Source: Nitrospirota bacterium (GTDB taxonomy: Bacteria > Nitrospirota > JACRHJ01). Taken from it: 64,000 nt of DNA. A model generated the notes under the pieces. It saw nothing but the letters and a program-made list of their open reading frames with translations. It was not told where the DNA came from and did no database searches. Shown here in pieces: positions 35,401-53,661 of the stretch (positions within the stretch are counted from its first letter, which is position 1; each line of letters opens with the position of its first letter). Position numbers and translations under genes: made by a program. The stretch covers positions 96,001 to 160,000 of the forward strand of contig CAVTDB010000026.1 in the NCBI GenBank assembly GCA_963733375.1, read 5' to 3'.

Positions 35401-37369
35401 GAATTGGTCGATATGCCCGCCGCGGCCGTCGTAATGGACGAATCCATGACGTTGACTAAAATGCTGTTGGTGCCGACCGATGAACTACCGATGTCCCAGT
35501 TCCAGTTGTTCGAATTGCCCCAGTCCTGGACTAAAGCGTAAGCTCCCGCCGTGTCCGGACCCTTCCGGAGGAACTGGTATTTATAATTGCCGCTGCCGCC
35601 GGCGGCGGCGGCGGTCCATGTTACAGCCTGTCCCGGAACTGCGGCCGGCAGGCTTGGAGCAAGGTCATTTACAGTTACCGGTACGTTAGCTGTTACATTT
35701 ATGCCTGTCCCGGGCATTTCAACGTTTCCTGCCTTATCTGTAGCCCTTGTCATGATGGTGTAGGACCCATCCTGGGGCGGAGTCCAGCTGTAGCTCCATT
35801 GTGAGGCGCCCTTTGCCGTGTTCCAGGTCGTACCGCCGTCTGTGGATACTTCCACCTGGTCACGCCGCCAACCTTTCCGTCGGCCGCAACGCCATTCACT
35901 GCGACTGTGGAACCCGTAAGCCTCGCGCCGTTTTTCGGATGCGTTATTTTCGAGCCCGGCGGGGCAAGCCTGACGACATTCACGTATGAGCAACTGATTA
36001 TGGTCTCATGCGCGCCGCTCGAATCCGTCGCGCGGCTCATTATCAGATATGCGCCATTTGTCGCCGGTGTCCATTTATAGTTCCATGTTGTCGTGCCGCT
36101 GGCCGTATCCCCAGGTCGTCCCGCCGTCTGTCGATACTTCCACGAAAGAGACGCCGTCCGCGGCCGAAGCCGTGCCGGTGACGGTGAGACCGGAGCTGCC
36201 GGCAAATGCCTTGCCAGCGGTTACAGGCGAAGTTATTGTCGAGACCGGTAAGGCGTATGACGGCCCCTCGATCATCCTGATGCGGTTGTTCTTGCTGTCG
36301 GCTACGAATATATTGCCCTTTGAATCCGTAGTGAGGCCAAACGGGTAGCGAAGTCCGGCATTGCCCGCGGCAGCGCCGTCGCCGGAAAATCCGGCAACCC
36401 CGGTCCCGGCCATAGTGTTTATCGTGCCGGAGGTATTGACTACCCTGACGCTCTGGTTGTACCAATCAGAAATATATACATTTCCGGCGGCGTCAACCGA
36501 GACGCCGGAAGGATGGTTAAGCGAGGCGGATATGGCATGTACCTCCGTCACCGGATAAGCCAGGCAGTGCCGTCGCCCGCCAGCGTCGTTATCCCGCCGT
36601 CCGAGCTGACAACCCTGACGCGCTGGTTATAACAGTCGGCGATGTAAAGTTTGCCCGCCGCGTCCAGGGCAATGCCCACAGGCCTGTTAAGCTTCGCCGA
36701 AATGGCGGGGCCGCCGTCTCCGGAAAAACCCGCCGCGCCCGTCCCGGCGACGGTCTTTATTATGCCCGTCGCATCTATCATCCGGATGCGGTTGTTGCCG
36801 GTATCCGATACGTATATATTCCCCTTGGAGTCCACCGCTACGCCTTCGGCTTGCTTTATGGCCGCCGAGACAGCCGGCCCGCCGTCGCCTGAGAAACGGG
36901 CGGCGCCGGTCCCTGCAACGGTAGTTATAATGCCGGATGCGCTTATCTTCCTGATGCGGTTGTTGCTCATGTCCGCGAAAAACACGTTCCCGGCGCTATC
37001 GACGGCAATGCCCGAAGGGTTCTTCAGCTTTGCGAGTATGGCGGAGCCGCCGTCGCCTGAATAACCCGCGGCGCCAACGCCCGCGATGGTCGATATCTTG
37101 CCGGTGGCGTCAATTTTCCTGATGCGCTGGTTGGCCCTGTCCGAGACGTAGAGGTTGCCCGCGGCGTCAGACGCCACGCAGCTCGGGGCACTTAGCCGGG
37201 CCGCAGTAGCCTGGCCCCCGTCGCCTGAGAAACCTGCGTTGCCAAGACCTGCATAAGTGTGGATATCGCCGGAAGATGCGAATGCCTCTTGCGAGGCGAA
37301 TATGAGAAGCGGGAGTAGAAGGATGAATACATAGAAATTGAAAAGCTTGGAACTCTTTTGCAGACCCAT
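32477..37369 (-). CDS. Large secreted protein: signal peptide, NHL beta-propeller, two Ig-like domains, seven ~100-aa beta-rich repeats, DUF1565/right-handed beta-helix, C-terminal DIGAY (many indels)
   Basis: (G)FSGDGGPA/P.G.AVD..GN.Y..D..N.RIR repeats; VEVSTDGG.TW; YYMSP.GSDSNSGTISSPWKT; SPAIGAG; SYDIGAY*. Confidence 0.8.
33540..35690 (-). repeat. Seven ~300-330 bp intragenic repeats
   Basis: GAACTGGTA core (YQF) at 33719, 34017, 34317, 34622, 34931, 35241 and 35571; peptide VTWTASATGGSGTYQYQF.RTGPDT.G. Confidence 0.85.
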
Positions 37370-37530
37370 TTTTTTTCCTCCGTGTTGCTTGAGGGCAAAG
37401 CACTTTAAGAACTGTTCCAACATACTCTGATGCGGTTTTTTTATCAAATTAATTGTTTTTAATTAATCCATATTAATCAAACAGTTAGCGGTAATGGTCT
37501 TAGGCGGCGCGTGGAGCATATACGTAAGCA

Positions 37531-37636: not shown

Positions 37637-40424
37637 CTAATAAGCGCCTATGTCCCAGGATGTACGGGTAGCGCCGGTTATATTGGTATTGAACAGCGTC
37701 TGCGGCGTCCCCGCGCCAATCGCAGGGCTACCGGCATTCAGCCGGTAATTCGATCGAGCTTACAAAGGAGGGGTTCGCGCCAATTGAATGCGCGTCGTTA
37801 GCGGTGTTGGCCTTGATACTGCGCAAGGGAATAGTTCGAACCTTTCCACTGGACATCGGTCGCGTTACCGTACCAGAGATTATAGTCGCCGGCGATCTGG
37901 CGTGTAATCAAACGACCCGACCCGCATGCCCCACTGACGCAGTTGCTGATGATATTGTTTTTCATCGTGAGGTTGACTACTCCCACAGGATTGTTCTGCC
38001 CGGCTTGGCTGAAATCAAGGCCGTATTGCGTTGCTGTCTATGGTATTGTTGTAAATCCCGTATGTTTTGCCCGTCATCGCCTAACAAAATCCCGAAATTG
38101 CAATTTGTTATAATGTTGTTGTAAATCAACAACCCATTTACGTTGGGGCCATGCCAGCCCTGGATGCCACAGCTCGCAATGTGCTGAATCAGGTTGTTTC
38201 GGATTGTTATGTTTGCAGTAGATGCCATGATATAGATACCCTGGTCCTGGCTTGTATTAGTACCTATGTGCTCGAGAACGCAGTTTTGAATCGTGATGTT
38301 CGTTGCATTGGTGTAAAAAATCAATGCCGTCAACACTGTAGTTCTGTATGGTGATTCCATCAAGGATTATGTACCCTGAATTTTCAAAAACGCACAAAGA
38401 CACCCGGCAGACACACCTGTCCCGTCAAAAATCGGCGTCTCTCCAGGATAGGCCTTGATGGTTATCGGGGCGGATGCGTGCCAGATGCGAGAGCATAGAC
38501 CATTGCAAGACCCTTGTCCCGTGTAAGTTCCGCCACGGACATAAAGGGTGTCGCCTGCTTTCAGGGCCGCCGCTCCGTGGGCTAGCGTCTTCCACGGCGA
38601 GCTTATCGTCCCGCTGTTGCTGTCCGAACCGGTCGGAGCTATGTAATAGGAGTTGCCCGTCGAGGTGGGGCTAGGGGTCGGGGTCGGGGTCGGAGTCGGA
38701 GTCGGGGTCGGAGAGGTGCCGCCAGTTGCCGACAGGCTGACGGTGACATTTATGCCTGTGCCGGGCGTTTCAACGTTTCCTGCCTTATCCGTAGCCCTTG
38801 TCATGATGGTGTAGGACCCATCCTGGGGCGGAGTCCAGCTGTAGCTCCATTGTGAGGCGCCCTTCGCCGTATTCCAGGTCGTCCCGCCGTCTGTGGATAC
38901 TTCCACCTTGGCCAAGCCGCAACCCTTTCCGTGGGCCGCAACGCCATTCACTGCGACTTTGGAAGCCGTAAGCCTCGCGCCGTTTTTCGGATGCGTTATT
39001 TTCGAGCCCGGCGGGGCAAGCCTGACGAGTACGTTCACGTATGAGCAACTGATTATGGTCTCATGCGCGCCGCTCGAATCCGTCGCACGGCTCATTATCA
39101 GATATGCGCCATCTGTCGTCGGGCTCCATTTATAGCTCCATGTTGCCGTGCCGCTGGCCGTACCCCAGGTAGCCCCGCCGTCTGTCGATACTTCCACGAA
39201 AGAGACGCCGCCCGCGGCCGAAGCCGTGCCGGTGACGGCGAGACCTGAGCTGCCGGCAAATATCTTGCCAGCGGTTACAGGCGAAGTTATTGTCGAGACC
39301 GGTAAGGCGTATGACGGCCCCTCGATCATCCTGATGCGGTTGTTCTTGCTGTCGGCTACGAATATATTGCCCTTTGAATCCGTAGTGAGGCCAAACGGGT
39401 AGCGAAGTCCGGCATTGCCCGCGGCAGCGCCGTCGCCGGAAAATCCGGCAACCCCGGTCCCGGCCAGAGTGTTTATCGTGCCGGAGGTATTGACTACCCT
39501 GACGCCCTGGTTGTGCCAGTCGGCTATATATACAGTTCCCGCGGCGGTAACCGACACGCCTGAAGGAAATCTAAGCGAGGCGGACATGGCATGTCCTCCG
39601 TCACCGGATAAGCCAGGCGTGCCGTCGCCCGCCAGCGTCGTTATCCCGCCGTCCGAGCTGACAACCCTGACGCGCTGGTTATAACAGTCGGCGATGTAAA
39701 GTTTGCCCGCCGCGTCCAGGGCAATGCCCACAGGCTTGTTAAGCTTCGCCGAAATGGCGGGGCCGCCGTCTCCGGAAAAACCCGCCGCGCCCGTCCCGGC
39801 GACGGTCTTTATTATGCCCGTCGCATCTATCATCCTGATGCGGTTGTTGCCGGTATCCGATACGTATATATCCCCTTTGGAGTCCACCGCTACGCCTTCG
39901 GCATGGTTTATGGCCGCCGAGACAGCCGGCCCGCCGTCGCCTGAGAAACGGGCGGCGCCGGTCCCTGCAACGGTAGTTATAATGCCGGATGCGCTTATCT
40001 TCCTGATGCGGTTGTTGCTCATGTCCGCGAAAAACACGTTCCCGGCGCTATCGACGGCAATGCCCGAAGGGTTTTTCAGCTTTGCGAGTATGGCGGAGCC
40101 GCCGTCGCCTGAATAACCCGCGGCGCCAACGCCCGCGATGGTCGATATCTTGCCGGTGGCGTCTATTTTCCTGATGCGCTGGTTGGCCCTGTCCGAGATG
40201 TAGAGGTTGCCCGCGGCATCAGACGCCACGCAGCTCGGGGCACTTAGCCGGGCCGCAGTAGCCTGGCCCCCGTCGCCTGAGAAACCTGCGTTGCCAAGAC
40301 CTGCATAAGTGTGGATATCGCCGGAGGATGCGAATGCCTCTTGCGAGGCGAATATGAGAAGCGGGAGTAGAAGGATGAATACATAGAAATTAAAAAGCTT
40401 GTAATTTTTTTTCAGACCCATCAT
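37637..40424 (-). CDS. Secreted paralog: NHL beta-propeller, two Ig-like domains, Pro-Thr linker, DUF1565/beta-helix, DIGAY (frameshifts in the 3' third)
   Basis: Nearly identical to 35700-37369; PTPTPTPTPTPTP linker; YYIAPTGSDSNSGTISSPWKT, GDTLYVRGGTY, AYPGETPIFDG; SWDIGAY*. Confidence 0.85.
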
Positions 40425-40662
40425 TTTTGATTCCTCCGTGCTGTTTGGGGGTAATTCCCTTTCAGAACTGCCCCAAGATACGCTGGAGCGGGCCATGAAT
40501 CAAATTAAAAGTCTTTAATTAATCTTTATTAATCAAAGGTTAGCAGTAATGGTCTGTTAAAGAAATGGTTTTGGGTGGTAAGGAAAGCATGAAAAAGCTT
40601 TAAAAGCGGGCGCCTCGAACGATAAGTACATAGTTGTTTTTGTGTAGCGGCAATCACTGCCG

Positions 40663-40872
40663 TCATTGCATTTTTTCCTGCGTCATATCCTCCTTTCTTT
40701 CATCCTGCTTTAAGTGATATCCAAGATAGAAAGGACATATTCTGCATAAAACAGTAGTGCAGTACTCTCTTAGCTGGAAGTTACTGGGGCAGTACGATTC
40801 ATTCACTGTGCAACAGTGGTATGCAACCCTTTTTGACAGATGCGGACATCTTGTTTTAGGCATATTTAGCAC
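40663..40872 (-). CDS. Small Cys-rich protein of unknown function
   Basis: RCPHL...HCC...YCPSNFQLREYC...CRICPFY; GAGGGG upstream. Confidence 0.55.
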   Translation of the reverse strand: MLNMPKTRCPHLSKRVAYHCCTVNESYCPSNFQLREYCTTVLCRICPFYLGYHLKQDERKEDMTQEKMQ

Positions 40873-41126
40873 CCCTCGCTGTTTAACCTTTTTTAAATAT
40901 GAGGGCTGATAGACTACTCTCTAGACGGTACGTGACGCGCTGAAGTTACAAAAAAAGCGAAACTATGGGAAACGTATTCAGTTTCAGGGAAGTCTTCAGG
41001 CAAAACGGCGGAAAATGCAGGTGCGGCTGAAACTCCCAGTAACAATTTCAAATTAGGTAAGTGATGGATTTATCCCATCAAGGAGTAGATACCCGTATGT
41101 TATGCTTAATTGAGGCAAAAGGGTAT

Positions 41127-41155
41127 TTGCAATAATAAGGTTGACGCGGTAATCT
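41127..41155 (+). promoter_or_regulatory. Possible sigma70 promoter of the DUF5132-ATPase-metK operon
   Basis: TTGCAA-17 nt-TAATCT. Confidence 0.3.
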
Positions 41156-41196
41156 TTAAATAATGCTGTCGGTTAATCTAATAAAGGGAGGCTGTT

Positions 41197-41487
41197 ATGG
41201 CGGGGTTGGGTGATATATTCAAGGGCAATATCGTTACTGCCGTAGTGATTGGGGTGGGTGCAATAATACTTGCGCCGGTGGCGGCCCGCGCGGCCAAACC
41301 GCTCGCCAAGGCCGCGTTAAAGGGCGGGCTGATTGCCTTTGAGAAGGGCAAGGAGGCGTTTCACGAGGTGAGCGAGGTGGTCGAGGACCTGGTGGCAGAG
41401 GTCAAGGCGGAGATGGAGAAGGAGGAGGCGAAGGAAACCCTTGAATCCATTGTCGCTGAAGGGGGAGAGATTACAAGTGCCTCCTAA
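41197..41487 (+). CDS. DUF5132-like small Gly-rich membrane-associated protein
   Basis: IGVGAIILAP...KPLAKAALKGG...E..EDLVAEVKAE; GGGAGG RBS. Confidence 0.75.
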   Translation: MAGLGDIFKGNIVTAVVIGVGAIILAPVAARAAKPLAKAALKGGLIAFEKGKEAFHEVSEVVEDLVAEVKAEMEKEEAKETLESIVAEGGEITSAS

Positions 41488-42004
41488 AGCCGGGCCGGAA
41501 GCGCCGTCGGCCTATATAAGCCATGCGACAAAAGGAAGGGTGCGGTTCAAGATACCTTCCAAGAAGGGCAACGCCCGTTTCTTTGCAAATATCAAGGACG
41601 TTCTTGAAAAAAATACCAGGGTCGCGGGTGTTGAAGTCAATCCCGTGACCGGCAGCGCCCTTGTCACCCACAATGCCGACATGGATTCCATAATCAAGCT
41701 CGCGGAGTCGAACAAGTTCTTCAAGCTCGAAAAGCGCGGACGGCGGCATGTATCCAACAACGTGGTAGAGAGCTTCAAGAGCCTGGACAATACGTTGAAA
41801 TCCGCGACGGACGGAGAGCTTGACCTGCCCACCGCGTCATTCCTGACGCTGGCGGGAGTCGGGATATATGAAATTGCGAAAGGCAATTTCGCCGCGCCCG
41901 CATGGTATACCGCATTCTGGTATGCGCTCAACATATTCCTGAAGGCAAGGCCTGACGCCAATGAAATCGAAAGAGAGCTTGTTCCACTTGGCGTTATCGA
42001 ATAA
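41477..42004 (+). CDS. HMA2/CoBaHMA-like domain protein with a C-terminal hydrophobic segment
   Basis: SHATKGRVRFKIP...VEVNPVTGSALVTH with no CxxC; tail LAGVGIYEI..GNFAAPAWYTAFWYA. Confidence 0.75.
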   Translation: MPPKAGPEAPSAYISHATKGRVRFKIPSKKGNARFFANIKDVLEKNTRVAGVEVNPVTGSALVTHNADMDSIIKLAESNKFFKLEKRGRRHVSNNVVESFKSLDNTLKSATDGELDLPTASFLTLAGVGIYEIAKGNFAAPAWYTAFWYALNIFLKARPDANEIERELVPLGVIE

Positions 42005-42016
42005 TGCAAGGGCAAT

Positions 42017-45000
42017 GTGGTACAGCCTATACATACTGCGGTCAGAGGGAGAGCACGGTATAAGGTAAAAGGACTTTACCACTCCGAATCCCTCAAAACA
42101 GATATCGAAAAGGGCCTCTTTAATGAGGCTCGTGTAATTTCTTTTTCCGTCAACATCCTGACCGGAAACGTCCTTGTATTTTTTCCTCCCGAAGAATCCA
42201 GCTCCGTAATAGCCTCACTGCTCAAATCCATTGTAGACAGCTACATAAAAAAACTTCAGGAATCCGGCCCGCCAGCCAGGACGGTAACCTCACCCGCAAA
42301 GGCAAAAGCTGAGCTTCGGGAAAAGTTCAAGAGAATCAGGCCGTCATGAAGAACAGGACGCGGCGCACTGGCATCTTATCAGTTCCGAAGACGCCCTCAA
42401 TCTCACACGCTCTCAGGCAGGCTACGGCCTCACGTCCGAGGCCGCGGCGGATAAGCTCAGGAAATTCGGACCGAACCTCCTGCCGGAGGCTGTAAAGCGC
42501 TCCGGCCTTGAGATATTCGCGGAACAGTTCAAATCGATTCCGGTTGCGCTTCTGGGTGTAGCCGCGGGCCTTTCAATCTTTACGGGAGGCATATCCGACG
42601 CGGTCCTTATCGCGGGCGTGGTCCTCATCAACGCCGCAATCGGTTATGTCACTGAAACCCAGGCCGAAAAAACCATCAGTTCGTTGAAAACCCTGGTCAG
42701 GCCTTACGCGACTGTCTTAAGAGACGGCTTGCCGACAGAACTGGATGCCAAAGACGTGGTGCCGGGCGACGTCATTATCCTGAAACCCGGCAGTTACGTG
42801 GCTGCGGACTCAAGGCTTATAGAGGCCGATTTTCTCACCGTCGACGAGTCGGCCCTCACCGGCGAGAGCATGCCGGTGACAAAGAATACCGAGACGCTGG
42901 TAAAGCTGGACGTGCCCCTTGCGGACAGATTGAATATGGCTTATATGGGGACTCTTGTAATCGGGGGACAGGGCTATGCCGTGGTCGTCGCCACAGGCGA
43001 GTTCACCGAAATAGGCAGGATTCAGACGATGATGGGGGAAGCCCAGTCGCCGGAGACTCCCATGGAGAGACAGCTCCGGGTAATGGGCGGACAGTTAGTC
43101 GTCATAAGCGGGGGCGTGTGCGCCGTCGTGTTCATAATCGGCCTGTTACGGGGATATGGGTTCCTGCAGATGCTGCAGTCGTCGATATCCCTTGCCGTGG
43201 CCGCGGTCCCCGAGGGCCTGCCCACGATCGCGACTACGACCCTTGCGCTCGGGATAAGGAAGATGCGAAGGCATAACGTGCTTATCCGGCATCTGGAAGC
43301 GGTGGAAACCCTGGGTTCAGTCCAGACCATCTCGTTCGACAAGACCGGCACGATCACGATGAACAGGATGACCGTGGTGGAGGTTTACGCAGGCGGCATA
43401 AGGTTAAAGATATCAGACGGCAAATTCATCTCGGATGCGGACAGAGTGAATCCCTATGCGATGAAAGAGCTGCTGATGCTGCTGCACGTATCGGTCATAT
43501 GCAATGAGACCAAAATAGACTTCAAAGACGGCGAATACGAGCTTCGAGGCTCGCCCACGGAAATCGCGCTGATTAACCTGGCTATAAACGCTGGCATAGA
43601 CGTAGTGGAACTAAGGGCAAGGCACCCCATCCGAAAGATAAGCCATCGCTCGGAGAGCCGCAACTACATGAGCACCATGCACGGGGCGAAGGGCGGCGGC
43701 AAAATTTTCGCGGTAAAGGGAAGCCCGTCGGAAGTCCTTGCGATGTGCAAGTGGCATATGAAGGGCGGGCAGACGCTTCAACTTACCGAGGATGACAGGC
43801 AGGAGATATTCACGGAAAACGAGAGGATGGCCGGCGCTTCCATGAGGATGCTGGGTGCGGCTTTCAATTATTCCGGTGAAAACGGCAATGGGCTGATATG
43901 GCTGGGCCTTATCGGCATGGCGGACCCCGTTAGGAAGGGACTCAAGAACCTTATGGCCGGTTTTCACCAGGCCGGCATCGATACGATAATGATAACGGGC
44001 GACCAGAGCCCTACCGCGTTTGCAATCGGCAAGGAGCTGAACCTGAGCCAGGACAAGCAACTCGAAATACTGGATTCGACGCATCTTGCCGATATGGACA
44101 AGGAAGTCCTGCGGGCGCTCGCCGCGAGGGTGCATGTTTACGCCAGGGTAAGTCCGGCGCATAAGCTCCAGATAGTCAGGGCATTGCAGGAATCCGGGAA
44201 GGTGGTCGCCATGACGGGCGACGGAATAAACGACGGCCCGGCGCTGAAGGCGGCGGACATCGGGATTGCGCTTGGGCATACCGGGACGGACGTAGCCAGG
44301 GAAGTGGCGGATATCGTCCTGGAAGACGATAACCTGGAGACGATGATAGTGGCGGTCAGCCATGGAAGGACAATATATAACAACATCCGCAAATCGGTCC
44401 ACTACCTGCTTGCCACCAACTTAAGCGAAATCAACGTAATGTTTCTTGCTATCGCGGGCGGCCTGGGCCAGCCCCTGAGCGCGATACAGCTCCTTTGGAT
44501 AAACCTCCTTTCGGATATCTTCCCCGGGCTTGCGCTGGCGCTCGAACTGCCCGAGCCGGACGTTCTGTCCCGGCCGCCCAGGGACCCGCACGAGCCGATA
44601 ATAAAGCGCTCTGACTTTAAAAGGATCGCTTTTGAGTCGGCGCTTTTGTCCGGCGGGGCGCTTGGGGCTTATGGATACGGAATAGCGAGGTATGGGATGG
44701 GGGCAAAGGCAAACACGATGGCGTTTACGACCCTGACGACCGCCCAGCTGGTGCACGCAATAAGCTGCCGCTCAGAGACGGAAAGCATCTTCGGCAAGGA
44801 AAAGATGCCGCCGAACCCTTATCTCAACACGGCGCTCGGGGTTTCTCTCGCCTTGCAGGTTCTGACCCTGGCGATACCGGGTTTAAGGAGGCTCCTTGGA
44901 ATTACGACGATCGGGTTTGCCGACGCGGCCGTTATCGGCGCCGGCTCCATACTGCCATTTCTGATAAACGAGGCGACGAAGAGTAAACCTTCGGAAAAAG

Positions 45001-45122
45001 CTGATCGCGAAAAAAGCGCCTCCGCGCTTGAAAGCACCGTACCTTCAACCGAACGGGAGACGAACGGATATGAGAAAGAATTTCATGTTTACCTCGGAGT
45101 CGGTAACGGAAGGACACCCTGA
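42017..45122 (+). CDS. P2A (Ca2+-type) P-type ATPase with an N-terminal HMA2-like domain (frameshifts at about 42300-42430)
   Basis: IHTAVRGRARYKV...NILTGNVLV; DESALTGES, AVAAVPEGLP, DKTGT, KGSP, MITGD, TGDGINDGPAL, ATNLSE, LWINLLSD. Confidence 0.9.
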
Positions 45123-46260
45123 CAAACTTTGCGACCTTATAGCCGACGGTATCGTGGACCACTTCCTCCAGCAGGACCCGCTCTCCAAGGTGGTCGCCGA
45201 GTGCGCGGTTTCCACGTCCATCGTATTCATCGCGGCGAGGTTCGCTTCCACGGCCATTGTGGATTTTCCGGCGGTTGCGAGACAGATAATAGACCAGGTA
45301 GGCTATGATCAGCCGGCCTTTAACGCGAAGACGTGCAGCATACTTACAAGCCTGAGGGAGCTTCCGGAGAAAGAGCGCCCGGCCGTGGACGAGAAGGACA
45401 TGTCGGATGAGGAGATCGAGGCGATGCCGGCAAGAAACCAGGTCACGGTCTTCGGTTATGCCTGCGATCAGACATCGGTATTGATGCCGCTCCCGATATG
45501 GCTCGCGCACAAGCTGGCCAGGCGGCTTACGATGGTGAGGCTGACGAAGACGCTTCCCTACCTCTGCCCGGACGGAAAGACCCAGGTGGGGGTGGAGTAC
45601 AGGGATTTTAAGCCGCACCGGATACACAGCATAACGATAGTCGCGAGCCAGGACAAAACCGGCGTGCCCGTCCTTAAAAACCTGCACGAAGAAATAAAGG
45701 GGGCGGTGATCGACGAGGTCTTCAAGGACGAGAGAATAAAACCGGACGACAAGACACATATATTCGTGAACCCGAGGGGGCAGTTGATAGTGGGCGGCCC
45801 CTCCGTGCATTCCGGCCTTACGGGCAGGAAAAACGCCATCGACACTTACGGCGAATATTCGAGGCAAAGCGGCGCGGCGCTCTCCGGCAAGGACCCGTCG
45901 AGGATTGACAGAGTCGGGGCCTATGCCGCGCGGCATGCGGCAAAGACAGTGGTCGCGGCGGGGCTTGCAACGGAGTGCGAGGTCCAGTTGAGCTATTCAA
46001 TCAACCTCTCAAGGCCGGTGAGCGTGCAGGTGGAGACGTTCGGCACCGGCAAAATTGGCGATGAGGAGATAGCCTCGATGCTGGAGAAAAATTTCGATTT
46101 CAGGCTAGCCGGAATAATAAAAAAGTTCAACCTGAGGCACCTGCCGTCTTTAATCAAGGGAGGCTTTTACAGGAAGCTTGCCGCATACGGCCATATGGGC
46201 AGGATGGACATGGGACTGCCCTGGGAAGTAACGGAAAAGATATCCGCGTTCAGGAGGTAG
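45070..46260 (+). CDS. Divergent S-adenosylmethionine synthetase (MetK) paralog
   Basis: FTSESVTEGHPDK, PDGKTQV, GLTGRK..DTYG, SGKDP, AAYGH retained; GAGDQG and GGGAFSGKD signatures altered; GGAGA RBS. Confidence 0.88.
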   Translation: MRKNFMFTSESVTEGHPDKLCDLIADGIVDHFLQQDPLSKVVAECAVSTSIVFIAARFASTAIVDFPAVARQIIDQVGYDQPAFNAKTCSILTSLRELPEKERPAVDEKDMSDEEIEAMPARNQVTVFGYACDQTSVLMPLPIWLAHKLARRLTMVRLTKTLPYLCPDGKTQVGVEYRDFKPHRIHSITIVASQDKTGVPVLKNLHEEIKGAVIDEVFKDERIKPDDKTHIFVNPRGQLIVGGPSVHSGLTGRKNAIDTYGEYSRQSGAALSGKDPSRIDRVGAYAARHAAKTVVAAGLATECEVQLSYSINLSRPVSVQVETFGTGKIGDEEIASMLEKNFDFRLAGIIKKFNLRHLPSLIKGGFYRKLAAYGHMGRMDMGLPWEVTEKISAFRR

Positions 46261-46261
46261 C

Positions 46262-46495
46262 ATGCTGAATTATCTTTATGACGACGAGGCGGAACGGCAG
46301 ATACACCTGCACGCTATGCAAATACTCTGCAAGGAGATAATACTCCCGGAGGAGGAAATAAGGGAATTGTACGAGCGGGAACTGGAAAGACTGAAGGGAA
46401 CCGCGAGGGTCAAGGATTTTCTGGTCGTGCTCGTCTGCAGGGCCGTGAGAGACACCCTGCGCAGGCACCGGGAAAATGAGGAGTTGGCCTCATGA
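46262..46495 (+). CDS. DUF3562-like small helical protein
   Basis: EEIRELYEREL..LK..ARVKDFL.VLV.R.VR; starts 1 nt after the metK-like stop. Confidence 0.65.
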   Translation: MLNYLYDDEAERQIHLHAMQILCKEIILPEEEIRELYERELERLKGTARVKDFLVVLVCRAVRDTLRRHRENEELAS

Positions 46496-46498
46496 CCC

Positions 46499-47359
46499 TC
46501 ACCCGGCCCCGTCTTTTTCTCCGTCTTTCGGTGTCACGTTTTTCATTAAAAAATCCACGATAACAGCCGCCGTCAGGGCCAGTATCAAGAGCCCCGCCGC
46601 AGTCATGATGCTGTTCAGCAGGTCGGGGCCGAACACCAGGACCAAACCAAGGCCGAACATCATGAAGCCGGAAACCAGGTTCAAAAACTTTCCCTGGCGG
46701 GCCTGCGTCTTTTTTGTCCCCAGGCTTACCGCGAAGATAAGGACAATGGCCGCGAGCGGTATGACATAGACGATGCAGTAAAGAAGAAGATAGGAGTAAT
46801 AATCGACCGTGGAGAGCTTGAACAGGGTCAGGCCCCTTGTGAATATCAGCGGGAACCCCAGCGAGCTGACCATCTCATAGACGTTTACGGCTATGGCAAG
46901 AAGGCTTGCGCCCGCTATCATCGGGACCGTGCGTTTTGAGTGCAGGAGCCCTTTAATCCTGGATATTACGGTATTGCCGGGTTTGTCGGAGTTTAAAAAA
47001 TTTTCTCCGTCACCATCCGTGAAATAGCTCCTTACATTCAGGCCGCCCACTATAACCGCGGCTATGCCTGCCGACATCGTTATTATCCTTAAGTGGCCGA
47101 CAAAAAGGAATACGTTCAGCCATGCGGCTATGAAGATGAAGTAGATTAAACCCGAGAATAAAACGAAGGTCCCGCCGATAAGGAGCATCCTGCTTCTCGA
47201 CCGCTCACTTATCAGCAGGCCCAGGAGAAACGAGAGGACGAAAAAAGCGACTGGGTTAACGCTGTCCAGCGCTGCGAGTATTACCGTAAACAAAGCTGGG
47301 GAGATTGATGAAGGATCAACCTTCCCCAGCAAAGGCAGGATTAATAAGGCATTGGACAT
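46499..47359 (-). CDS. CcdA/DsbD-beta-like multi-pass membrane protein lacking the redox cysteines
   Basis: LDSVNPVAFFVLSFLL, SRSRML..GG.FV, NVYEMVSSLGFP, YY.YL.LY..VYVIPL, LNLVSG.MM.GLG. Confidence 0.6.
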   Translation of the reverse strand: MSNALLILPLLGKVDPSSISPALFTVILAALDSVNPVAFFVLSFLLGLLISERSRSRMLLIGGTFVLFSGLIYFIFIAAWLNVFLFVGHLRIITMSAGIAAVIVGGLNVRSYFTDGDGENFLNSDKPGNTVISRIKGLLHSKRTVPMIAGASLLAIAVNVYEMVSSLGFPLIFTRGLTLFKLSTVDYYSYLLLYCIVYVIPLAAIVLIFAVSLGTKKTQARQGKFLNLVSGFMMFGLGLVLVFGPDLLNSIMTAAGLLILALTAAVIVDFLMKNVTPKDGEKDGAG

Positions 47360-48038
47360 TACCTGCTTTTCTTCCTCGCTTTTGCATGCTCTTCCGCGCC
47401 TCGGCCTCAGCCGGTTCCGCTTCTTCCGCCGCCGTCTTCCAACAGCCCTCTTCGGAAGCGCCGCGCTGGCTACATCTTTCAAGCCGCCCACCACGCCGAT
47501 AAGGACATCTTTCACGGTGGCCACGGCGGCATTTCCGATGGAGCCCGCCGCCTCAACGGCGCCGCCTACCGCGGAAACCGCGACTTCTTCGAGATTGCCG
47601 CCCACTTCCTTCGCGGCCTCGATTATCCCGTCTACCGCGCCCTTTGCCACAATAGCGACATCCGCGCCGACTTCGGCGGCGCCCTTAACGGCGCCTCTTG
47701 CGGTCTGGCTTGCGGCCGTGACAACGTCTCCGCTGATATCGCTTATCCCCATCACGGCGCCTTTAGCGACGCTTCTCGTGCTGTTGATAAGGTTCGCGCC
47801 CACTTCCTCGGAGGCCTGTATAGCCCCTTTCAGGACATCCGCCGTCACGTTCACGGCCTGGTCCGTCACCGTGCCCGTGGCCTTGATGGTATTTGAAACC
47901 GTATCGCGCACAAGACGTCACTATCTCGGCCTCTATCTCATTCAGCCCCTGCAGGCTTGAAGTTATCTCACCTTTTACGGTAGTACCTGCTTTTCCTATC
48001 GACATGCCGGGATGTTCCAACGCTTCTTCCTTAGCCAT
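47359..48038 (-). CDS. Ala/Gly/Val-rich protein with 22-aa amphipathic repeats (frameshifts near 47915 and 47400-47440)
   Basis: MAKEEALEH start after GGAGG; repeats such as VLKGAIQASEEVGANL / VAKGAVMGISDISGDV / TARGAVKGAAEVGADV; probable TAA overlaps the next ATG. Confidence 0.7.
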
Positions 48039-48153
48039 AAAGCCCTCCGTAGTTAAATGTACCATTTAAGTATAGCATTCCCGGAAAACTCATAACCCAT
48101 TGTCCCGCAGTGATTTTCATTACTTACCTATCATCAGGTAAGTATCGGTCAAT

Positions 48154-48444
48154 TCATACGACCTGCCTGAGCCTTTCGGCGTATGTGCCGCTTTTTACCA
48201 GGATTTCTCTCTTTATCTCGGCTAAAGTAACTATGACCTCGTCTATTTCCTCCGGCGCCAGGATGACCGTATCGTTTGTCTCCGTCGGACATTCGCCCGT
48301 ATTGCAGAGGTAGAGGTGTTTTTCACCCCGTACGCCAAAAAGAAGCGTCGTTCCCGATTTCAGCGGGATCATTTTTTTACCGTCTTTTAAGGCCACTATC
48401 ATTTTATCATCTCCTTTTCCGCTATAGACAGAAGCCAGACTCAA
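48154..48444 (-). CDS. Hypothetical protein
   Basis: Open frame in operon orientation; GGAGA upstream of an internal ATG; no recognised family. Confidence 0.45.
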   Translation of the reverse strand: MSLASVYSGKGDDKMIVALKDGKKMIPLKSGTTLLFGVRGEKHLYLCNTGECPTETNDTVILAPEEIDEVIVTLAEIKREILVKSGTYAERLRQVV

Positions 48445-48609
48445 CCATACGGAGGTGATGTTACCACTTTATTGTTACAACCTTATTGTGTCTAAAAGAA
48501 TTTATTGTTAAGCAGAGGAACTGAACTGGTATGAAACTGGAAAAATACTACACTCTCCGCTTGAGCGGCAATGGCAGGACCGGCAGCGGTTATTTAAACT
48601 TGTTTTCTC

Positions 48610-48981
48610 TTACAGCAGTACGCTTAAAAGTGAAAGCGCGGAGCCCTCGAAGACCAGATCGACCGCGACGCCGAAGACAGCCTTGCTAACGGCGCGGCCG
48701 GCCTTATGGGCCGCCTGGTGCACGTACTGGTCGTTGGTTACAGCCTTTGAATAATCGAAATAACCTTTTTTTGCCATTTCGGAAACTATGGCTTTGTGCG
48801 TCACGGAGATGGGGTCGTAATTGATGACGATGCTGCCGGTAACGGTGTTGGTAGCGACGGCGGTAACTCCGTCAATGGAGCTTATCTCACCTTCGATCCT
48901 TGCAGCCATCAACTCCTTGCCCTTGATGACCGGGGTCTTGACTCTGAGCCTGCCAGGTACATTGTGCATGTAATAGCTCAA
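48610..48981 (-). CDS. Stand-alone HMA2/CoBaHMA-like protein
   Basis: MSYYMHNVPGRLRVKTP...IDGVTAVATNTVTGSIVINYDP; amphipathic C-terminus; GGAGG RBS. Confidence 0.8.
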   Translation of the reverse strand: MSYYMHNVPGRLRVKTPVIKGKELMAARIEGEISSIDGVTAVATNTVTGSIVINYDPISVTHKAIVSEMAKKGYFDYSKAVTNDQYVHQAAHKAGRAVSKAVFGVAVDLVFEGSALSLLSVLL

Positions 48982-49286
48982 ATCTCACCTCCCTTGATTT
49001 TTATATACGTCCTGCAAACCGGATATCCGGAGCATCGGAACCTCCAGAAAACGTCCTCCCTCCGGTATATGTGCATATGTTTGCCGCAGACGGGACATAA
49101 AGGTTTGTGGTTTATAACAGGTCTTTTGCTCCCCAGGGTAAACTGTTTGTTGCATATCAGACACAGATACCGCTGTTTTTCCCGTGAAGTGTGCCCGTAC
49201 CTGTAAATTGCTTCGCTTCCGCATGAAGGGCATTCAATTTCCCCGGTCCATCCTTGGGCGGCTTTGTCATGCCTACAGTTATACAA
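48978..49286 (-). CDS. Double zinc-ribbon protein (IS1 InsA-like ribbon plus topoisomerase C4-like ribbon); start uncertain
   Basis: CPSCGS..IYRYG....KQRYLCLICNKQF and CPVCGK.M...RCSGYPVC; stop overlaps the HMA2 ATG. Confidence 0.7.
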   Translation of the reverse strand: MYNCRHDKAAQGWTGEIECPSCGSEAIYRYGHTSREKQRYLCLICNKQFTLGSKRPVINHKPLCPVCGKHMHIYRREDVFWRFRCSGYPVCRTYIKIKGGEI

Positions 49287-49332
49287 TATTTAAATTACAG
49301 GGTAATTAACGAATTGTTAAGATTTGGTTACA
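49278..49332 (-). promoter_or_regulatory. Pho-box-like (OmpR/PhoB family) direct repeats plus -10 element
   Basis: Minus strand TGTAAC, CTTAAC, GTTAAT, TGTAAT at 49327, 49316, 49305, 49294 (11-bp period), then TATAAC 10 nt downstream. Confidence 0.6.
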
Positions 49333-49401
49333 GTCGAAATCAGAGGGGAATTTATATGGTTTGCCGAAATCAGGGGGGCCTTTATAAAGACCCCCATTGT
49401 G

Positions 49402-49803
49402 TCAACTTTTAGCTTTGGCCGCCTTGGTAGCCACTTTTTTTGCCGGTTTAGGCCGGGATACCGTCTCTTCCTTGCGCGGCGCCGCTTTCTTTATGGCCGC
49501 CTTCGCGGAAGACACATGCCGCGCCACCGTTCCTCCCACGCCTGCCCCGGCTGCCGCGGCTAAGAGAGGCTCGTCGGCTGCGGCGTGACGTTCGGATTTT
49601 ATTTCCGCCACCAGGTCGCCGACCACTTCGCCGACGTCATGGTACGCCTCCCTGCCTTTATCATACGCGACCAGCCCTCCTTTTATGGCCATCTTCACGA
49701 CCGGCTTCGCCACCCTGGCGATAATCGGCACGAATATGATGCCCCCGACGCCTATCGCCAGCGCCGTCACTATGTTCCCTTTGAACAGGTCATCAATTCC
49801 CAT
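49402..49803 (-). CDS. Second DUF5132-like protein with a Lys/Ala-rich basic tail
   Basis: FKGNIVTALAIGVGGIIFVP..KPVVK.AIKGG...DLVAEIKSE is paralogous to 41197; tail KAAIKKAAP...PKPAKKVATKAAKAKS. Confidence 0.78.
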   Translation of the reverse strand: MGIDDLFKGNIVTALAIGVGGIIFVPIIARVAKPVVKMAIKGGLVAYDKGREAYHDVGEVVGDLVAEIKSERHAAADEPLLAAAAGAGVGGTVARHVSSAKAAIKKAAPRKEETVSRPKPAKKVATKAAKAKS

Positions 49804-49874
49804 GACCCCACCTCCGCTGAAATCCTGTTATTCAAATTTGCCTCTATTATTTAATTATAGCAAATTCGATGAAG

Positions 49875-50261
49875 TTATATACCCAGGAATTCAGCGACCT
49901 TGCTCCTTAATTCGTAAAGGTTGCCTTTGCATATATAACCCCGCAGCCCATGTTCCGCGGCCGATTTGCGCAGGCTGTCTTCGTCGTTCGACGAAAGAAA
50001 AGCTACCGGGATGTCTTTGCAGGACATGGTGTTTTTTATTACTTGCGCGAGCGATTCGCCCGAGAGTGCGGGCATGTTTATATCGATCAGGATAAGGTCC
50101 GGCCGCAGGTCCTTTATTACATTCGTGGAGCCTAAGGCCTGGCTGTGGGTATGCGCTTCGTAACCCTCGTTTTCCATGATCTCTTTTGTCGTCAGAAGAA
50201 GTCTCTCGTCGTCATCGATTATCAATATTTTTTTCTTTTTCTTTTCCATTTCCATTTCCAT
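49875..50261 (-). CDS. Single-domain response regulator (receiver only)
   Basis: ILIIDDD, PDLILIDINMP, FLSS, GYICK. Confidence 0.88.
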   Translation of the reverse strand: MEMEMEKKKKKILIIDDDERLLLTTKEIMENEGYEAHTHSQALGSTNVIKDLRPDLILIDINMPALSGESLAQVIKNTMSCKDIPVAFLSSNDEDSLRKSAAEHGLRGYICKGNLYELRSKVAEFLGI

Positions 50262-51435
50262 TTCCGTTTCCGTTCTCCATTAAGTCAAGTGGAAGGCTGA
50301 TTTCAAACTTCGTGCCTTCTCCGAAGGTACTGCTGATAGAGATATCGCCTCCAAGCAGGTCAACCAGGTGCTTCGTTATGGTGAGGCCAAGCCCCGTCCC
50401 TTCATGCCTCTTCGTATGCGCGTCCTCAAGCTGGGTGAATGCCGTGAAAAGTCTTTTTAGGTCTTCCTCTCTTATGCCTATGCCGGTATCCCGGACTGAA
50501 ACGAGGAACCTGCCTTCTTCCTTACGCGCCTCAAGGATGATCCTTCCTTCATCCGTGAACTTTGCCGCGTTGCTCATGAGGTTCGTCAGTATCTGGCGGA
50601 GCTTGACCCGGTCCGTATAAATACTGAACGGACTTCCTATTACGTGGACCTCCACGGAAACGGCTTTTTTCCCGAGAAGCACGCGGGTGGTATCCGCGAC
50701 TTCTTTCAATACCGGGGCCGGGTCGAATAATTCAGGGATGACTTCCATCCGGCCCGCCTCGACCTTCGACAGGTCGAGTATGTTGGTAATAATAGCGCGC
50801 AGGCCAAGGGCGCTTGACGAGAGCAGGTCCAGCCGGTCCGTCAGCTGGTCGATGTATCCCTTATCGCATGATATCTTCATCAACTCGGCCAGGCCTATGA
50901 TGGCGTTGACCGGAGCCCTCAGTTCATGAGTCACGTTGGCGATGAACTGGGATTTGATGTTGTTGACCTTCTCCAGTTCCTTCGCCTTGGCGTTGGCCAG
51001 TTCCTTCTGCATGATGCTGTTGGCCAGGGCGTTGCTCTGCTCTATGACTATCCTTTTTATGGAGAGAAGCCCGATGAACTTATCGTCGTCATCGACGACC
51101 ACTATATCGTCATAGACGTCCTGGAACGGCCTGCAAAGCGCCCTGTCGAGCGTTTCGTCTATGCCGCGCGACATATTGATCGACAGGGGCTCTTTATCGG
51201 CTATGGTAAAAATCGGCTTCCGCTCGTGAAGCTCGAAACCGAACCTTCTAAACAGCGTGAAAAGCAACTTGTTCCTCGTAACGAGGCCGACGGGTTTACC
51301 CATATCCACGATGGCGAGCGCGTCGAGATGCTTCTCCTGAAAGAACCTTTCAGCCACTTCTTTTACGCGCATATCGGGAAAGATATGCTCTGTTGAAGTG
51401 ATAAGCTCTCCGATAGGAGTTATAGTCTCTTCCAT
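50212..51435 (-). CDS. Cytoplasmic histidine kinase with an N-terminal CBS pair
   Basis: CBS (KPVGLVTR; FIGLLS), H box THELRAP, NLMSNAAKF, DTGIGI, GTGLGL; no TM. Confidence 0.9.
   Translation of the reverse strand: MEETITPIGELITSTEHIFPDMRVKEVAERFFQEKHLDALAIVDMGKPVGLVTRNKLLFTLFRRFGFELHERKPIFTIADKEPLSINMSRGIDETLDRALCRPFQDVYDDIVVVDDDDKFIGLLSIKRIVIEQSNALANSIMQKELANAKAKELEKVNNIKSQFIANVTHELRAPVNAIIGLAELMKISCDKGYIDQLTDRLDLLSSSALGLRAIITNILDLSKVEAGRMEVIPELFDPAPVLKEVADTTRVLLGKKAVSVEVHVIGSPFSIYTDRVKLRQILTNLMSNAAKFTDEGRIILEARKEEGRFLVSVRDTGIGIREEDLKRLFTAFTQLEDAHTKRHEGTGLGLTITKHLVDLLGGDISISSTFGEGTKFEISLPLDLMENGNGNGNGNGKEKEKNIDNR
50243..50272. repeat. (TTTCCR)5 hexamer microsatellite
   Basis: TTTCCA x3 then TTTCCG x2 in the kinase/regulator overlap. 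Confidence 0.8.
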
Positions 51436-51454
51436 GATTTTCCTGTTCATACGG

Positions 51455-52244
51455 CTAATATGCGAACCATTTATCGAGGCTGTACAGGCCGGACACAACG
51501 CTTTCGCGGCTCTTTGCGGAGAGGTAGTTTCTGCTGACGGACCCTTTTTTTGCACTGACATCAGATTTTATCGCCCGGCTGAAATAAAGGAATGACTTTA
51601 TCCTCCGGACGCCCAGCAGGCTCCAGAGGTGAGGGAGGAGGGTCATTTCTCCGTACCAGGGTATCTCCGCCTTCTTGTCGCCGGAATAATATTTGATGCT
51701 GACGGGGATGACAGCAATGCCGGAGCGCGCGGGCGCCTCAAACAACATCCTCTTGAAATCCCCCGTCCCGCTGCCGTCGGTCGTGGTGCCTTCAGGGAAC
51801 GTAACCACGTTTACCCCGTGCGACAGCGCCGTCTCCACGTCCGACAGCGATTTCCACGATGCGAGCGCCGAGCGCCGGTCTATGAATACCGTCCCGGCGA
51901 GCCGCGCCATCCAGCCTATCAGCGGCCAGGACCGCACCTCCATCTTCGATACGAAAACCGACGGGGAGAGGCTCGCCATCACTAAAATGTCGATATAGCT
52001 GACGTGATTGCAGACGGTAAAACCGGTATTTTGCACCCTGTGCCCGGTGGAGCCTACGTCTATTCCCAGTATCAGCGCAGACGGCCCTGGCCCAGACCAT
52101 GCATCCGAATGCTGAAAATTTTGCCTTAAGCCTTGCATCAAAAATGAGGATAAGACGCCCCGCCTGGACGGGCGGCAGCATCAAGGCTGTCCAAAGGACC
52201 AGGAGCAATAGTCTTATTAGCCTGAGCGGAAAACGGCTGTCCAT
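51455..52244 (-). CDS. olsA: PlsC-family acyltransferase, probable lyso-ornithine lipid O-acyltransferase (frameshift near 52080)
   Basis: NHVSYID, FIDR, FPEGTT; coupled to olsB. Confidence 0.75.
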
Positions 52245-53011
52245 CAGAAGTACCTGTTCCTGTAGCGGTTAATAAGGCGCTCGCGGTCGAGCAGGATTAA
52301 GAAGTCCGAAACGCCGAACGCGCCGTCGAATGCCGGCTCTCCGCAGATGCGCGCGCCAAGTTTGAGATAGGCGAGCAGCAGGGGCGGGACATGTTCAAGC
52401 ACCGTGCCCCTGTCAAAGTCGGCATGCGCGTCGAAACCCGGGACGTTTGCCAGAGGAAAGGTCCGGAATTCGGAGTCGGCCAGGTAAGACTTTTTGAAAT
52501 ATGCATATGCGTTGCTTATGACCTTCGGGTTTATGGTGTGGATGCTCCCGCATCCGAAGACGTACTTTATATCGTGCTCCAGTATATACTTCGCCACCCC
52601 GGACCACATGAGGTTAAGTACGGCCGAGCCCCGGTAATCCTTGTGCACGCATGCCCGGCCCAGTTCCAGTTTTTCTCCCTGATGCCTGAAAATATTCCGC
52701 AGGTCGAACTCGTTCTCCGAATAAAAACCGACCCCCGCGTCGGCCCTCTTTCCGGTCATCATCCGGTACGTGCCGACGACCATGTCACGGGATGAGTCCA
52801 CGACCATTATATGGTCGCAGTGCCTGTCGTAAACATCCCTGTCCAGGCCGGTCGCAAACGACGAGGCGAGCCCTTCGTTCAGTTCGAGGTTGAAGACTTC
52901 GAACCGGAGCCTCAGGACCGACTCCATCTCTTCCTCAGTGACCGCCTTCTTCAGTACCAGCGCGGACTGCGCTTTCTCCATTACCGTATTAAAACTCATC
53001 GATACCTCCAT
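52244..53011 (-). CDS. olsB: GNAT ornithine N-acyltransferase
   Basis: RLRFEVF..E, DRD.YD..CDH, VGTYR, GFYSENEF, ELGRACVH..YR, FGC.S, PPLL.AYL.LGA. Confidence 0.82.
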   Translation of the reverse strand: MEVSMSFNTVMEKAQSALVLKKAVTEEEMESVLRLRFEVFNLELNEGLASSFATGLDRDVYDRHCDHIMVVDSSRDMVVGTYRMMTGKRADAGVGFYSENEFDLRNIFRHQGEKLELGRACVHKDYRGSAVLNLMWSGVAKYILEHDIKYVFGCGSIHTINPKVISNAYAYFKKSYLADSEFRTFPLANVPGFDAHADFDRGTVLEHVPPLLLAYLKLGARICGEPAFDGAFGVSDFLILLDRERLINRYRNRYF

Positions 53012-53042: not shown

Positions 53043-53160
53043 ATCATAATGCCGGAACGTTACAGGTTTATTAAGGAGGCGTTAAGATTTCTAAGGGGCG
53101 TGAAACTTAACAGAGCTTTAACAATTCATTAATCAACCGGTCACTAAATGAGAGTATAAC
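53043..53160. promoter_or_regulatory. Divergent Pho-box-like promoters
   Basis: Minus: CTTAAC/CTTAAT/TGTAAC (53081, 53070, 53059) plus TATGAT; plus: CTTAAC/TTTAAC/ATTAAT/GGTCAC (53106, 53117, 53128, 53139) plus TATAAC; 11-bp period, 10 nt to each -10. Confidence 0.65.
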
Positions 53161-53166
53161 GGACGC

Positions 53167-53661
53167 ATGGAGACAATAAGCGTAGCCTCTTTAGGACTGG
53201 GAGTCGCCTTTAGCCTCGGCTTGTCCTATTTCTTTTTCTATGTCGCCTATCCGTTCATCATCTGGAAACTCGGGTTGATAGAAGGCGGCATAACGATGAC
53301 CTGTTTCTCACCCATATTCAGCTATATGGGCATAACGTTCTACGACAGGTCGGGCAGGGATTGGTTCGGCATCGAGGCAATAAAGGAAAAACTGAGCGGG
53401 CTGAAGGGGAAGAGCAGGATAGGCAGGCTCATAGCGGCACAGGTAAAGAGGGGCGGCCCTTTGACGCTGGTCATAATGTCGATAAAATTCGACCCGTTCG
53501 TCACCACGGTCTACCTGAGGCATGGCCACAGGAAGTTCAAGGGCCTGGCCTTCCGGGACTGGATAATATTCTTTTCGAGCGCGGCCATAGGAAACGGATA
53601 TTGGATTTTCATCATGTTCGGAGGCGGGACGCTGCTTAAATACCTGGGGCATTATTTTTAG
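53167..53661 (+). CDS. Uncharacterised membrane protein
   Basis: Several hydrophobic segments; FYD.SGRDWFGIE and FDPFVTTVYLRHG. Confidence 0.65.
   Translation: METISVASLGLGVAFSLGLSYFFFYVAYPFIIWKLGLIEGGITMTCFSPIFSYMGITFYDRSGRDWFGIEAIKEKLSGLKGKSRIGRLIAAQVKRGGPLTLVIMSIKFDPFVTTVYLRHGHRKFKGLAFRDWIIFFSSAAIGNGYWIFIMFGGGTLLKYLGHYF

Follow-up and report, generated by a model that had tools for sequence, protein, structure and literature searches.

Introduction

S-adenosylmethionine (SAM) synthetase, encoded in bacteria by the housekeeping gene metK (E. coli; EC 2.5.1.6), is among the most conserved and most studied of enzymes. Here we describe a MetK-like paralog from a Nitrospirota metagenome-assembled genome (MAG), encoded at 45070..46260 of a stretch of 64,000 nucleotides (assembly GCA_963733375.1, contig CAVTDB010000026.1, positions 96,001 to 160,000 of the forward strand; hereafter the window, to which coordinates refer unless another locus is named). 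In contrast to metK, it is an accessory copy that stands beside the gene of a P2-type P-type ATPase, the pump. Its residues suggest a triphosphate-processing enzyme that does not make SAM, one resembling a tripolyphosphatase (tripolyphosphate, PPPi, or short polyphosphate to pyrophosphate, PPi, and phosphate, Pi) and working with the pump; we would give this reading a probability of roughly 40%.

Residues of human methionine adenosyltransferase (MAT) named below are matched by motif position, presumably correctly, to E. coli E55, D238, Q98, F230, K269 and S99, and position 227 we take to be human Ser247. In the available portion of PMC6850014, Glu70 and Asp258 of the human enzyme hold the amino group of methionine and Gln113 its carboxylate; Asp258 also contacts the ribose O3', Phe250 stacks on the adenine and Ser247 contacts adenine N1. 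According to the same source, MAT-alpha1 variants Asp258Gly and Lys289Asn lose SAM formation and keep phosphatase activity, gating-loop mutants of the E. coli enzyme show a kcat reduced over 200-fold, tripolyphosphate hydrolysis being unchanged, Ser114Ala retains 2.5% activity, and Gln113Ala of human MAT2A retains 75.6%.

The neighbourhood of the MetK-like gene resembles a different described system, the ccyA (calcyanin) locus of Microcystis aeruginosa PCC 7806. In the available part of bioRxiv 10.1101/2024.07.07.602159, that locus combines DUF5132 and CoBaHMA (HMA_2) proteins with a Ca2+ transporter and is presented as a set of genes that may serve the formation of amorphous CaCO3 inside the cell. 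It is beside ccyA, the marker of intracellular calcium-carbonate formation in Microcystis, that DUF5132 and CoBaHMA proteins have previously been discussed (bioRxiv 10.1101/2024.07.07.602159; PMC8890360; both as partially available). The ccyA locus has calcyanin and a Ca2+/H+ exchanger; in the cluster of the window (40000..52000) stand a P-type pump and the MetK-like gene. The terms "adenosylmethionine", "metK" and "P-type" each occur 0 times in the available text of the preprint. The full-text literature, in a coverage that did not extend to the CoBaHMA paper (doi 10.1002/prot.26668), yielded no description of a pump-linked MetK-like paralog, and the main text of PMC7016017, on P2A ATPase neighbourhoods, mentions SAM synthetase 0 times. 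The family is apparently an undescribed, widespread sister family of MetK.

A MetK fold with a rebuilt methionine site

45070..46260, + strand: 396-aa MetK-like paralog with a MetK fold; ligands of triphosphate, Mg and K kept, methionine residues replaced, extended acidic loop

The open reading frame (ORF) is uninterrupted over its 396 codons, with no internal stops in the translation, as a preliminary description of this DNA had stated. Its product matches all three domains of the Pfam MetK set (PF00438, PF02772 and PF02773; E-values 1.2e-32, 1.3e-35 and 5.2e-54) and scores 375.8 bits against TIGR01034, the curated metK equivalog, whose cut-off is 309.4. Automatic annotation will therefore label the gene metK, as had been foreseen. 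Among solved structures, the nearest matches are to normal SAM synthetases (best 7r3b, E-value 1.1e-93; E. coli 1fug, 8.4e-87), and an AlphaFold2 model built on an alignment of 83 sequences (predicted local distance difference test, pLDDT, 94.9) was matched by Foldseek to solved MetK structures with template-modelling (TM) scores of 0.86-0.92.

The active site was compared by aligning the window protein to E. coli MetK, taken from an annotated genome, and E. coli numbering is used throughout. The two proteins are 42% identical and share, besides the three-domain fold, H14, D16, E42, K165, R244, K245, K265 and D271, the half of the site that would bind and hydrolyse triphosphate with the help of K+ and two Mg2+, as well as D163, the ligand of the ribose. 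The methionine-holding acidic and polar groups, on the other hand, have all been replaced: E55R (VFIAARF vs VLVGGEI), Q98L, S99P, D118N and D238H (GGPSVHSG vs GGPMGDCG). With K269R as well, the pocket would have become more positive. Neither signature motif is retained, GAGDQG reading PARNQV and GGGAFSGKD reading SGAALSGKD, and G54A, G120V, T227R and R229Q/F230L are further switches. Instead of a gating loop the window protein has an acidic loop about 10 residues longer, and a 7-residue insertion (LPSLIKG) lies near the C-terminus. Every substitution and every retained residue listed in the preliminary description was recovered here, numbering included; one detail needed correction, the motif around D163 and K165, which had been given as PDGK and is PDAK (162-165) in E. 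coli MetK.

Since the methionine-site positions are altered and every phosphate and metal ligand is kept, we infer that the protein makes no SAM at useful rates and still handles triphosphate. A probable loss of SAM synthesis, possibly with tri/polyphosphatase activity, had already been suggested, and the published mutants fit a loss of SAM synthesis with tripolyphosphatase activity kept: D238, K269, S99 and the gating loop are naturally altered in the window protein, and in the mutants SAM synthesis falls and tripolyphosphatase activity stays (PMC6850014, available portion). Those mutants are disease or laboratory losses of function, whereas the changes in the window family are fixed, partly charge-reversing and embedded in about 70% overall identity across phyla. 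A decaying pseudogene was also considered and rejected, given the intact ORF, contigs from peat metagenomes that carry no indel in it, and active-site residues fixed in 121/121 family sequences.

A distinct clade beside canonical MetK

A word-indexed search returned, among the matches listed, 120 clusters, all 71-95% identical to the window protein; every one of these 120 best listed homologs that is named at its source is called methionine adenosyltransferase or SAM synthetase. A scan with one genome per species confirmed at least 560 relatives among at least 598 matched stretches, a count that may include canonical MetK. The best 80 were used as genome loci and belong to Nitrospirota, Desulfobacterota-type lineages, Binatia, a Chromatiales MAG and many cyanobacteria, cultured carriers among the last being Nostoc, Fischerella, Chlorogloeopsis fritschii PCC 6912, Hydrococcus and Anabaena.

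Conservation was counted in 121 family sequences, the window protein included, and compared with 71 canonical representatives. R55, N118, H238, R269, S258 and L262 are present in 121/121, position 98 is L, M or F in 119/121, and P99 occurs in 112/121; E55 and D238, by comparison, are found in 71/71 canonical representatives and D118 in 70/71. The triphosphate half is equally constant in the family, with H14, E42, D163, R244, K245, K265 and D271 in 121/121, D16 in 120/121 and K165 in 119/121. The consensus reads xKNQVT where canonical enzymes have GAGDQG, and SGAALSGKD. As judged from these alignments, the substitution pattern is far beyond chance.

The window protein also carries the other parts of the clade signature, an acidic extended loop (DExxLSDEEIE-like) and a C-terminal LPSxxKGGF insertion. 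It deviates only at position 227, where it has R and 118/121 sequences have D or E, and at position 230, where it has L and 113/121 keep F. On this count R227 and F230L/R229Q are peculiar to the protein's own lineage. An argument from the loss of the adenine-stacking F230, made in the preliminary description, is therefore not supported. R227 and L230 are both shared by at least one near relative, which is 95% identical.

A maximum-likelihood tree of 77 rows (quick IQ-TREE search; support from the Shimodaira-Hasegawa-like approximate likelihood-ratio test, SH-aLRT, only, no bootstrap) placed the 19 pump-linked rows on one branch (SH-aLRT 94) inside a superclade of 36 rows (98). These 36 share H238, R269 and L262, and all 41 canonical rows fall on the opposite side, so that the substitutions do define a clade, as had been supposed. 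Branch lengths are 0.06-0.31 within the clade against 0.17-1.13 for the canonical representatives (E. coli outgroup 0.10), a comparison between the query's best matches on one side and representatives of 50%-identity clusters on the other. By alignment and tree, the window gene belongs to a distinct, slowly evolving MetK-fold clade; it is not the cell's SAM synthetase.

The window's own genome, a Nitrospirota MAG of 2.39 Mb that is 81% complete, encodes a second MetK (C26:476117-477235), 44% identical to the first, with all the canonical motifs (GAGDQG, GGPQGDTG and GGGAFSGKD). Because this canonical metK is present, the window gene is a paralog, as first proposed, and not the housekeeping enzyme. 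Both forms were found in 5/5 further genomes, four large cyanobacterial ones and one of the Nitrospiraceae, the second MetK being 45-50% identical. Among 301 Nitrospirota genomes, 44 have the paralog (at least 61% identity); 42 of the 44 also have a second bacterial-type MetK, and 43 have another SAM synthetase of some kind. Chlorogloeopsis fritschii PCC 6912 has two pump-linked MetK-like copies (C1:5915663-5916844 and C1:1588339-1589529; 69% and 68% identity to the window protein) plus a canonical metK. In one Nitrospirota genome that has the paralog and lacks a canonical metK of bacterial type, an archaeal-type SAM synthetase (PF01941, E-value 4e-162; G122:C46:3575-4762, - strand) lies on the same contig, about 6 kb from the paralog.

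These counts bear on another explanation, that the protein is a genuine SAM synthetase isozyme, specialised and expressed with its cluster, for instance to supply SAM under phosphate limitation. Its score above the TIGR01034 cut-off, its intact fold with all phosphate ligands, and the 75.6% activity of human MAT2A Q113A (PMC6850014, available portion) would be in keeping with such a role, as would G157, a paralog-bearing genome that is 100% complete by markers (in 300 contigs) and in which no other SAM synthetase was found. However, no metK match was found in 3/257 Nitrospirota genomes without the paralog either, so the single miss among the 44 falls within assembly noise, and the other 43 keep another SAM synthetase. 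E55, D238 and D118, near-invariant in canonical enzymes, are replaced throughout the family, and SAM synthesis is largely lost in the mutants Asp258Gly and Ser114Ala and in those of the gating loop (PMC6850014, available portion). An isozyme would moreover leave the linkage to the pump unexplained, and we consider it improbable, the least probable of the readings weighed here.

Linkage to a P2-type pump

42288..45122, + strand: P2-type P-type ATPase frame (Ca-type by best family matches); no ATG, GTG or TTG before 42618
42017..42349, + strand: CoBaHMA (Pfam HMA_2) domain ORF; N-terminus of the pump in relatives, severed here by a frame shift near 42336

The 3' end of the pump frame (45122) overlaps the start of the MetK-like gene (45070) by 53 nt. 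Its best family matches are calcium pumps of the PMR1 and SERCA types, both under the equivalog cut-offs. In L006, one of the closest related loci, and in contigs of three peat-metagenome runs that are 90-99% alike, an inserted "TG" behind 42336 restores a single ORF of about 1040 aa; the split of the CoBaHMA and pump parts in the window is therefore either an assembly error or a strain-specific frameshift. At the same site L003, the other closest relative, has a 3-nt gap with respect to L006.

A link between the clade and P2-type ATPases had been suggested, and the genome loci bear it out. A pump homolog is present in 79/80, and in 75 of the 76 loci with at least 1000 nt of upstream sequence its C-terminus ends within 400 nt upstream of the MetK-like gene (the 76th, at 427 nt). 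Estimated gaps run from -49 to +351 nt, with overlaps in 17/75. A CoBaHMA (HMA_2) domain with an invariant H...GRxR signature forms the pump N-terminus in 69/73 listed pump ORFs. Divergent superclade members served to seed a metagenome scan, which yielded another 80 loci; 66 of them are full-length, 41 of the H238/R269 type (one with Q238) and 25 canonical. Where the H238-type loci include upstream sequence, the pump is upstream in 34/35 (32 within 400 nt, two at 555 and 1148 nt), against 0/21 canonical metagenome metK loci. The linkage persists down to 45-49% identity with the MetK-like protein of the window, and pump identity correlates with MetK-like identity (r = 0.80; 115 loci).

The only H238-type metagenome locus without an upstream pump is L115 (MetK-like gene at L115:8001-9188). 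Directly downstream of that gene lies a 657-aa P-type-like protein (L115:9530-11503, + strand) with Cation_ATPase_N, E1-E2 and Cation_ATPase_C domains and without the HAD phosphorylation or nucleotide-binding domain, that is, the shell of a P-type ATPase. Fusions of pump and MetK-like protein were looked for among 127 longer proteins (E-value at most 1e-60); the three chimeras found are single sequences, all without the C-terminal membrane part of the pump and two without part of the MetK N-terminus, and we read them as deletions or assembly chimeras.

Such a tight pairing could also mean that the MetK-like protein serves as a regulatory subunit of the pump with little or no catalysis of its own, using its former active site to sense ATP, PPPi, polyphosphate or SAM and touching the pump perhaps through its acidic loop and a basic patch of the CoBaHMA domain. 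The near-obligate adjacency, the overlapping or short-gap junctions and the correlated divergence would suit a sensor, as would the loss of K165 in some superclade members and the pump shell beside the pump-less copy in L115. Yet metal and phosphate ligands that are invariant in the family are typical of a working enzyme, and there is no conserved fusion of the two proteins, only the three single chimeras. A predicted complex of a MetK-like dimer with the CoBaHMA domain of the pump (residues 1-80; acidic loop against basic patch) scored 0.00 (mark, 0.32) and weighs neither way. Overall, a sensory role seems quite unlikely to us.

The gene cluster and phosphate limitation

Around the pump and the MetK-like gene, the window holds a larger cluster on both strands:

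41197..41487, + strand: small DUF5132 membrane protein, opening the + strand operon
41441..42004, + strand: CoBaHMA (HMA_2) protein, 187 aa, hydrophobic C-terminal part
46499..47911, - strand: 470-aa protein, N-terminal helical repeats and C-terminal multi-pass membrane part
48610..48981, - strand: CoBaHMA (HMA_2/HMA) protein, 123 aa
48978..49286, - strand: 102-aa double zinc-ribbon protein, opening the minus-strand sub-operon
49294..49331, - strand: Pho-box-like array (four KTNAY units, 11-bp phase) immediately upstream of the zinc-ribbon gene
49402..49803, - strand: second DUF5132 protein, 133 aa
49875..50261, - strand: receiver-only response regulator
50212..51561, - strand: CBS-domain histidine kinase
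51455..52141, - strand: PlsC-type acyltransferase
52244..53011, - strand: OlsB-type N-acyltransferase, preceded by the array at 53059..53085
53059..53085, - strand: Pho-box-like array before the OlsB-type gene
53107..53144, + strand: Pho-box-like array before an unannotated 164-aa ORF (53167..53661)

Besides the pump and the MetK-like gene, the cluster holds two DUF5132 proteins and three further CoBaHMA ORFs. The PlsC-type and OlsB-type genes, which come after the kinase gene, look like an ornithine-lipid pair, that is, genes for a phosphorus-free lipid.

Several observations tie this cluster to phosphate limitation. We scanned eight related loci with profiles, which covered 116 of their 132 ORFs, and found pstSCAB or pstB-phoU-phoR-PHO4 within 10 kb in 5/8; PhoH, PsiE, an OlsF-like gene and a glycerophosphodiesterase are likewise among the genes of these loci. 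Pho-box-like arrays, defined as at least three KTNAY units in 11-bp phase, number 5 in the window against 0.25 expected, and precede the zinc-ribbon sub-operon, the OlsB-like gene and the divergent ORF. Against a background of 0.028 per 350 bp, such arrays stand before the zinc-ribbon gene in 20/22 loci, before the first DUF5132 gene in 11/25 and before the membrane-protein gene that precedes the pump in 6/32. They also precede pstS in four related loci (L063, L071, L072 and L091). A further Pho-box candidate, picked by eye near 41150-41178, was dropped because its spacing is 11 and 13 bp and it lies too near the start codon.

A proposed activity and its alternatives

Taken together, the MetK-like protein may be made together with, and co-evolve with, a CoBaHMA-bearing P2-type cation pump, within a cluster tied to phosphate-limitation genes, and could act as the soluble partner of that pump when cells remodel their stores of phosphate and divalent cations. 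The link to phosphate limitation would suggest that stores of phosphate are handled jointly with the divalent cations they bind, a step that is speculation. The preliminary description had imagined phosphate being supplied to a pump-loaded compartment; we found no evidence for such a compartment.

Several points weigh against a tripolyphosphatase-like enzyme working with the pump. The activity itself is deduced from retained residues, and the glycine-rich phosphate loop is altered (GGGAF to SGAAL). H14, D163 and mostly F230, which in MetK serve C5'-O5' cleavage and adenosine binding, are conserved too, so that a nucleoside triphosphate (NTP) fits as a substrate at least as well as free PPPi. 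Because Gln113Ala of the human enzyme keeps 75.6% of its activity, the change at Q98 alone means little. In the wider superclade K165 is Q, S, T, A or G in several members, and positions 55 (R/H/K/Q/S), 98 (L/M/F/Y/H/Q) and 118 (N/D/E/H/S/Q/V) vary. To these may be added G157, with its paralog and no other SAM synthetase found. As to the phosphate link, no Pho-box-like array (at most one mismatch) was found in 40497-41196, upstream of the operon to which pump and MetK-like gene belong; L003, L006 and L007, close relatives of the window, are likewise without an array at that place.

The conserved adenosine side of the site raises another option, a nucleosyl (adenosyl) transferase with a different nucleophile. 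Such an enzyme would cleave ATP or another NTP at C5'-O5' and release PPPi, the nucleoside passing to an anionic non-amino-acid acceptor held by R55, H238 and R269, or to water, with the PPPi in the latter case going on to PPi and Pi. The precedent for a nucleophile other than methionine is given by the ATP:cob(I)alamin adenosyltransferases of the CobA and PduO types, the only other enzymes known to attack ATP at C5' and displace its tripolyphosphate intact. Their folds are unrelated, and the cluster in the window contains no corrinoid genes. With H14 and D163 invariant (121/121) and F230 kept in 113/121, the adenosine and C5' machinery seems to be maintained beyond what a PPPi site explains; the pocket changes are charge reversals fixed in the family, unlike random decay, and D or E at position 227 in 118/121 sequences hints at altered base recognition. 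Against this, the variability of positions 55, 98 and 118 across the pump-linked superclade is unlike what a single, specific new acceptor would lead one to expect, no conserved gene that might make an acceptor is found in the cluster, and the window protein itself departs from its family at both base-contacting positions (R227 and L230). We regard a transferase of this kind as rather unlikely.

A bolder proposal is that the MetK fold was recruited for a new, methionine-free cleavage of NTPs or short polyphosphate, forming an obligate two-part machine with the CoBaHMA-tagged P2-type pump within a response to phosphate starvation that several phyla have in common. An example would be the breakdown of polyphosphate or nucleotides (or the production of PPPi or PPi) coupled to the handling of stored Ca2+ or Mg2+. 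This proposal is tentative and, on balance, doubtful; if it were true, the enzyme activity and the physiological system would both be new.

For this sister family of MetK, about 70% identical across Nitrospirota, Desulfobacterota, Binatia and cyanobacteria, thousands of database entries are probably mislabelled as SAM synthetase. The rebuilt substrate pocket and the fixed P-type ATPase partner point to an undescribed reaction and to a partnership of pump and enzyme, and the poorly understood CoBaHMA and DUF5132 proteins, so far tied only to cyanobacterial calcium-carbonate inclusions, are now linked to phosphate limitation. The question can be tested directly, for the operon is present in strains available in culture, among them Chlorogloeopsis fritschii PCC 6912, Nostoc, Fischerella and Hydrococcus.

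Other genes of the cluster

Homologs of the 470-aa protein sit between the HMA_2 gene and the pump in 28/80 genome loci. The response regulator and the CBS-domain kinase recur at 54-70% identity in four loci (L007, L009, L066 and L072). In four of the eight related loci scanned (L045:11207-12172, L063:11206-12072, L071:11206-12180 and L072:11210-12196), the gene next after the MetK-like one, at a gap of 0-4 nt, encodes a CorA-type Mg2+/Co2+ channel; the window has none at that place. Finally, large secreted-looking proteins with NHL repeats and Ig domains adjoin the cluster (38367-40496 and 36548-37447, both on the - strand). Their homologs occur only in the two closest relatives, L003 and L006, which places them outside the conserved system.

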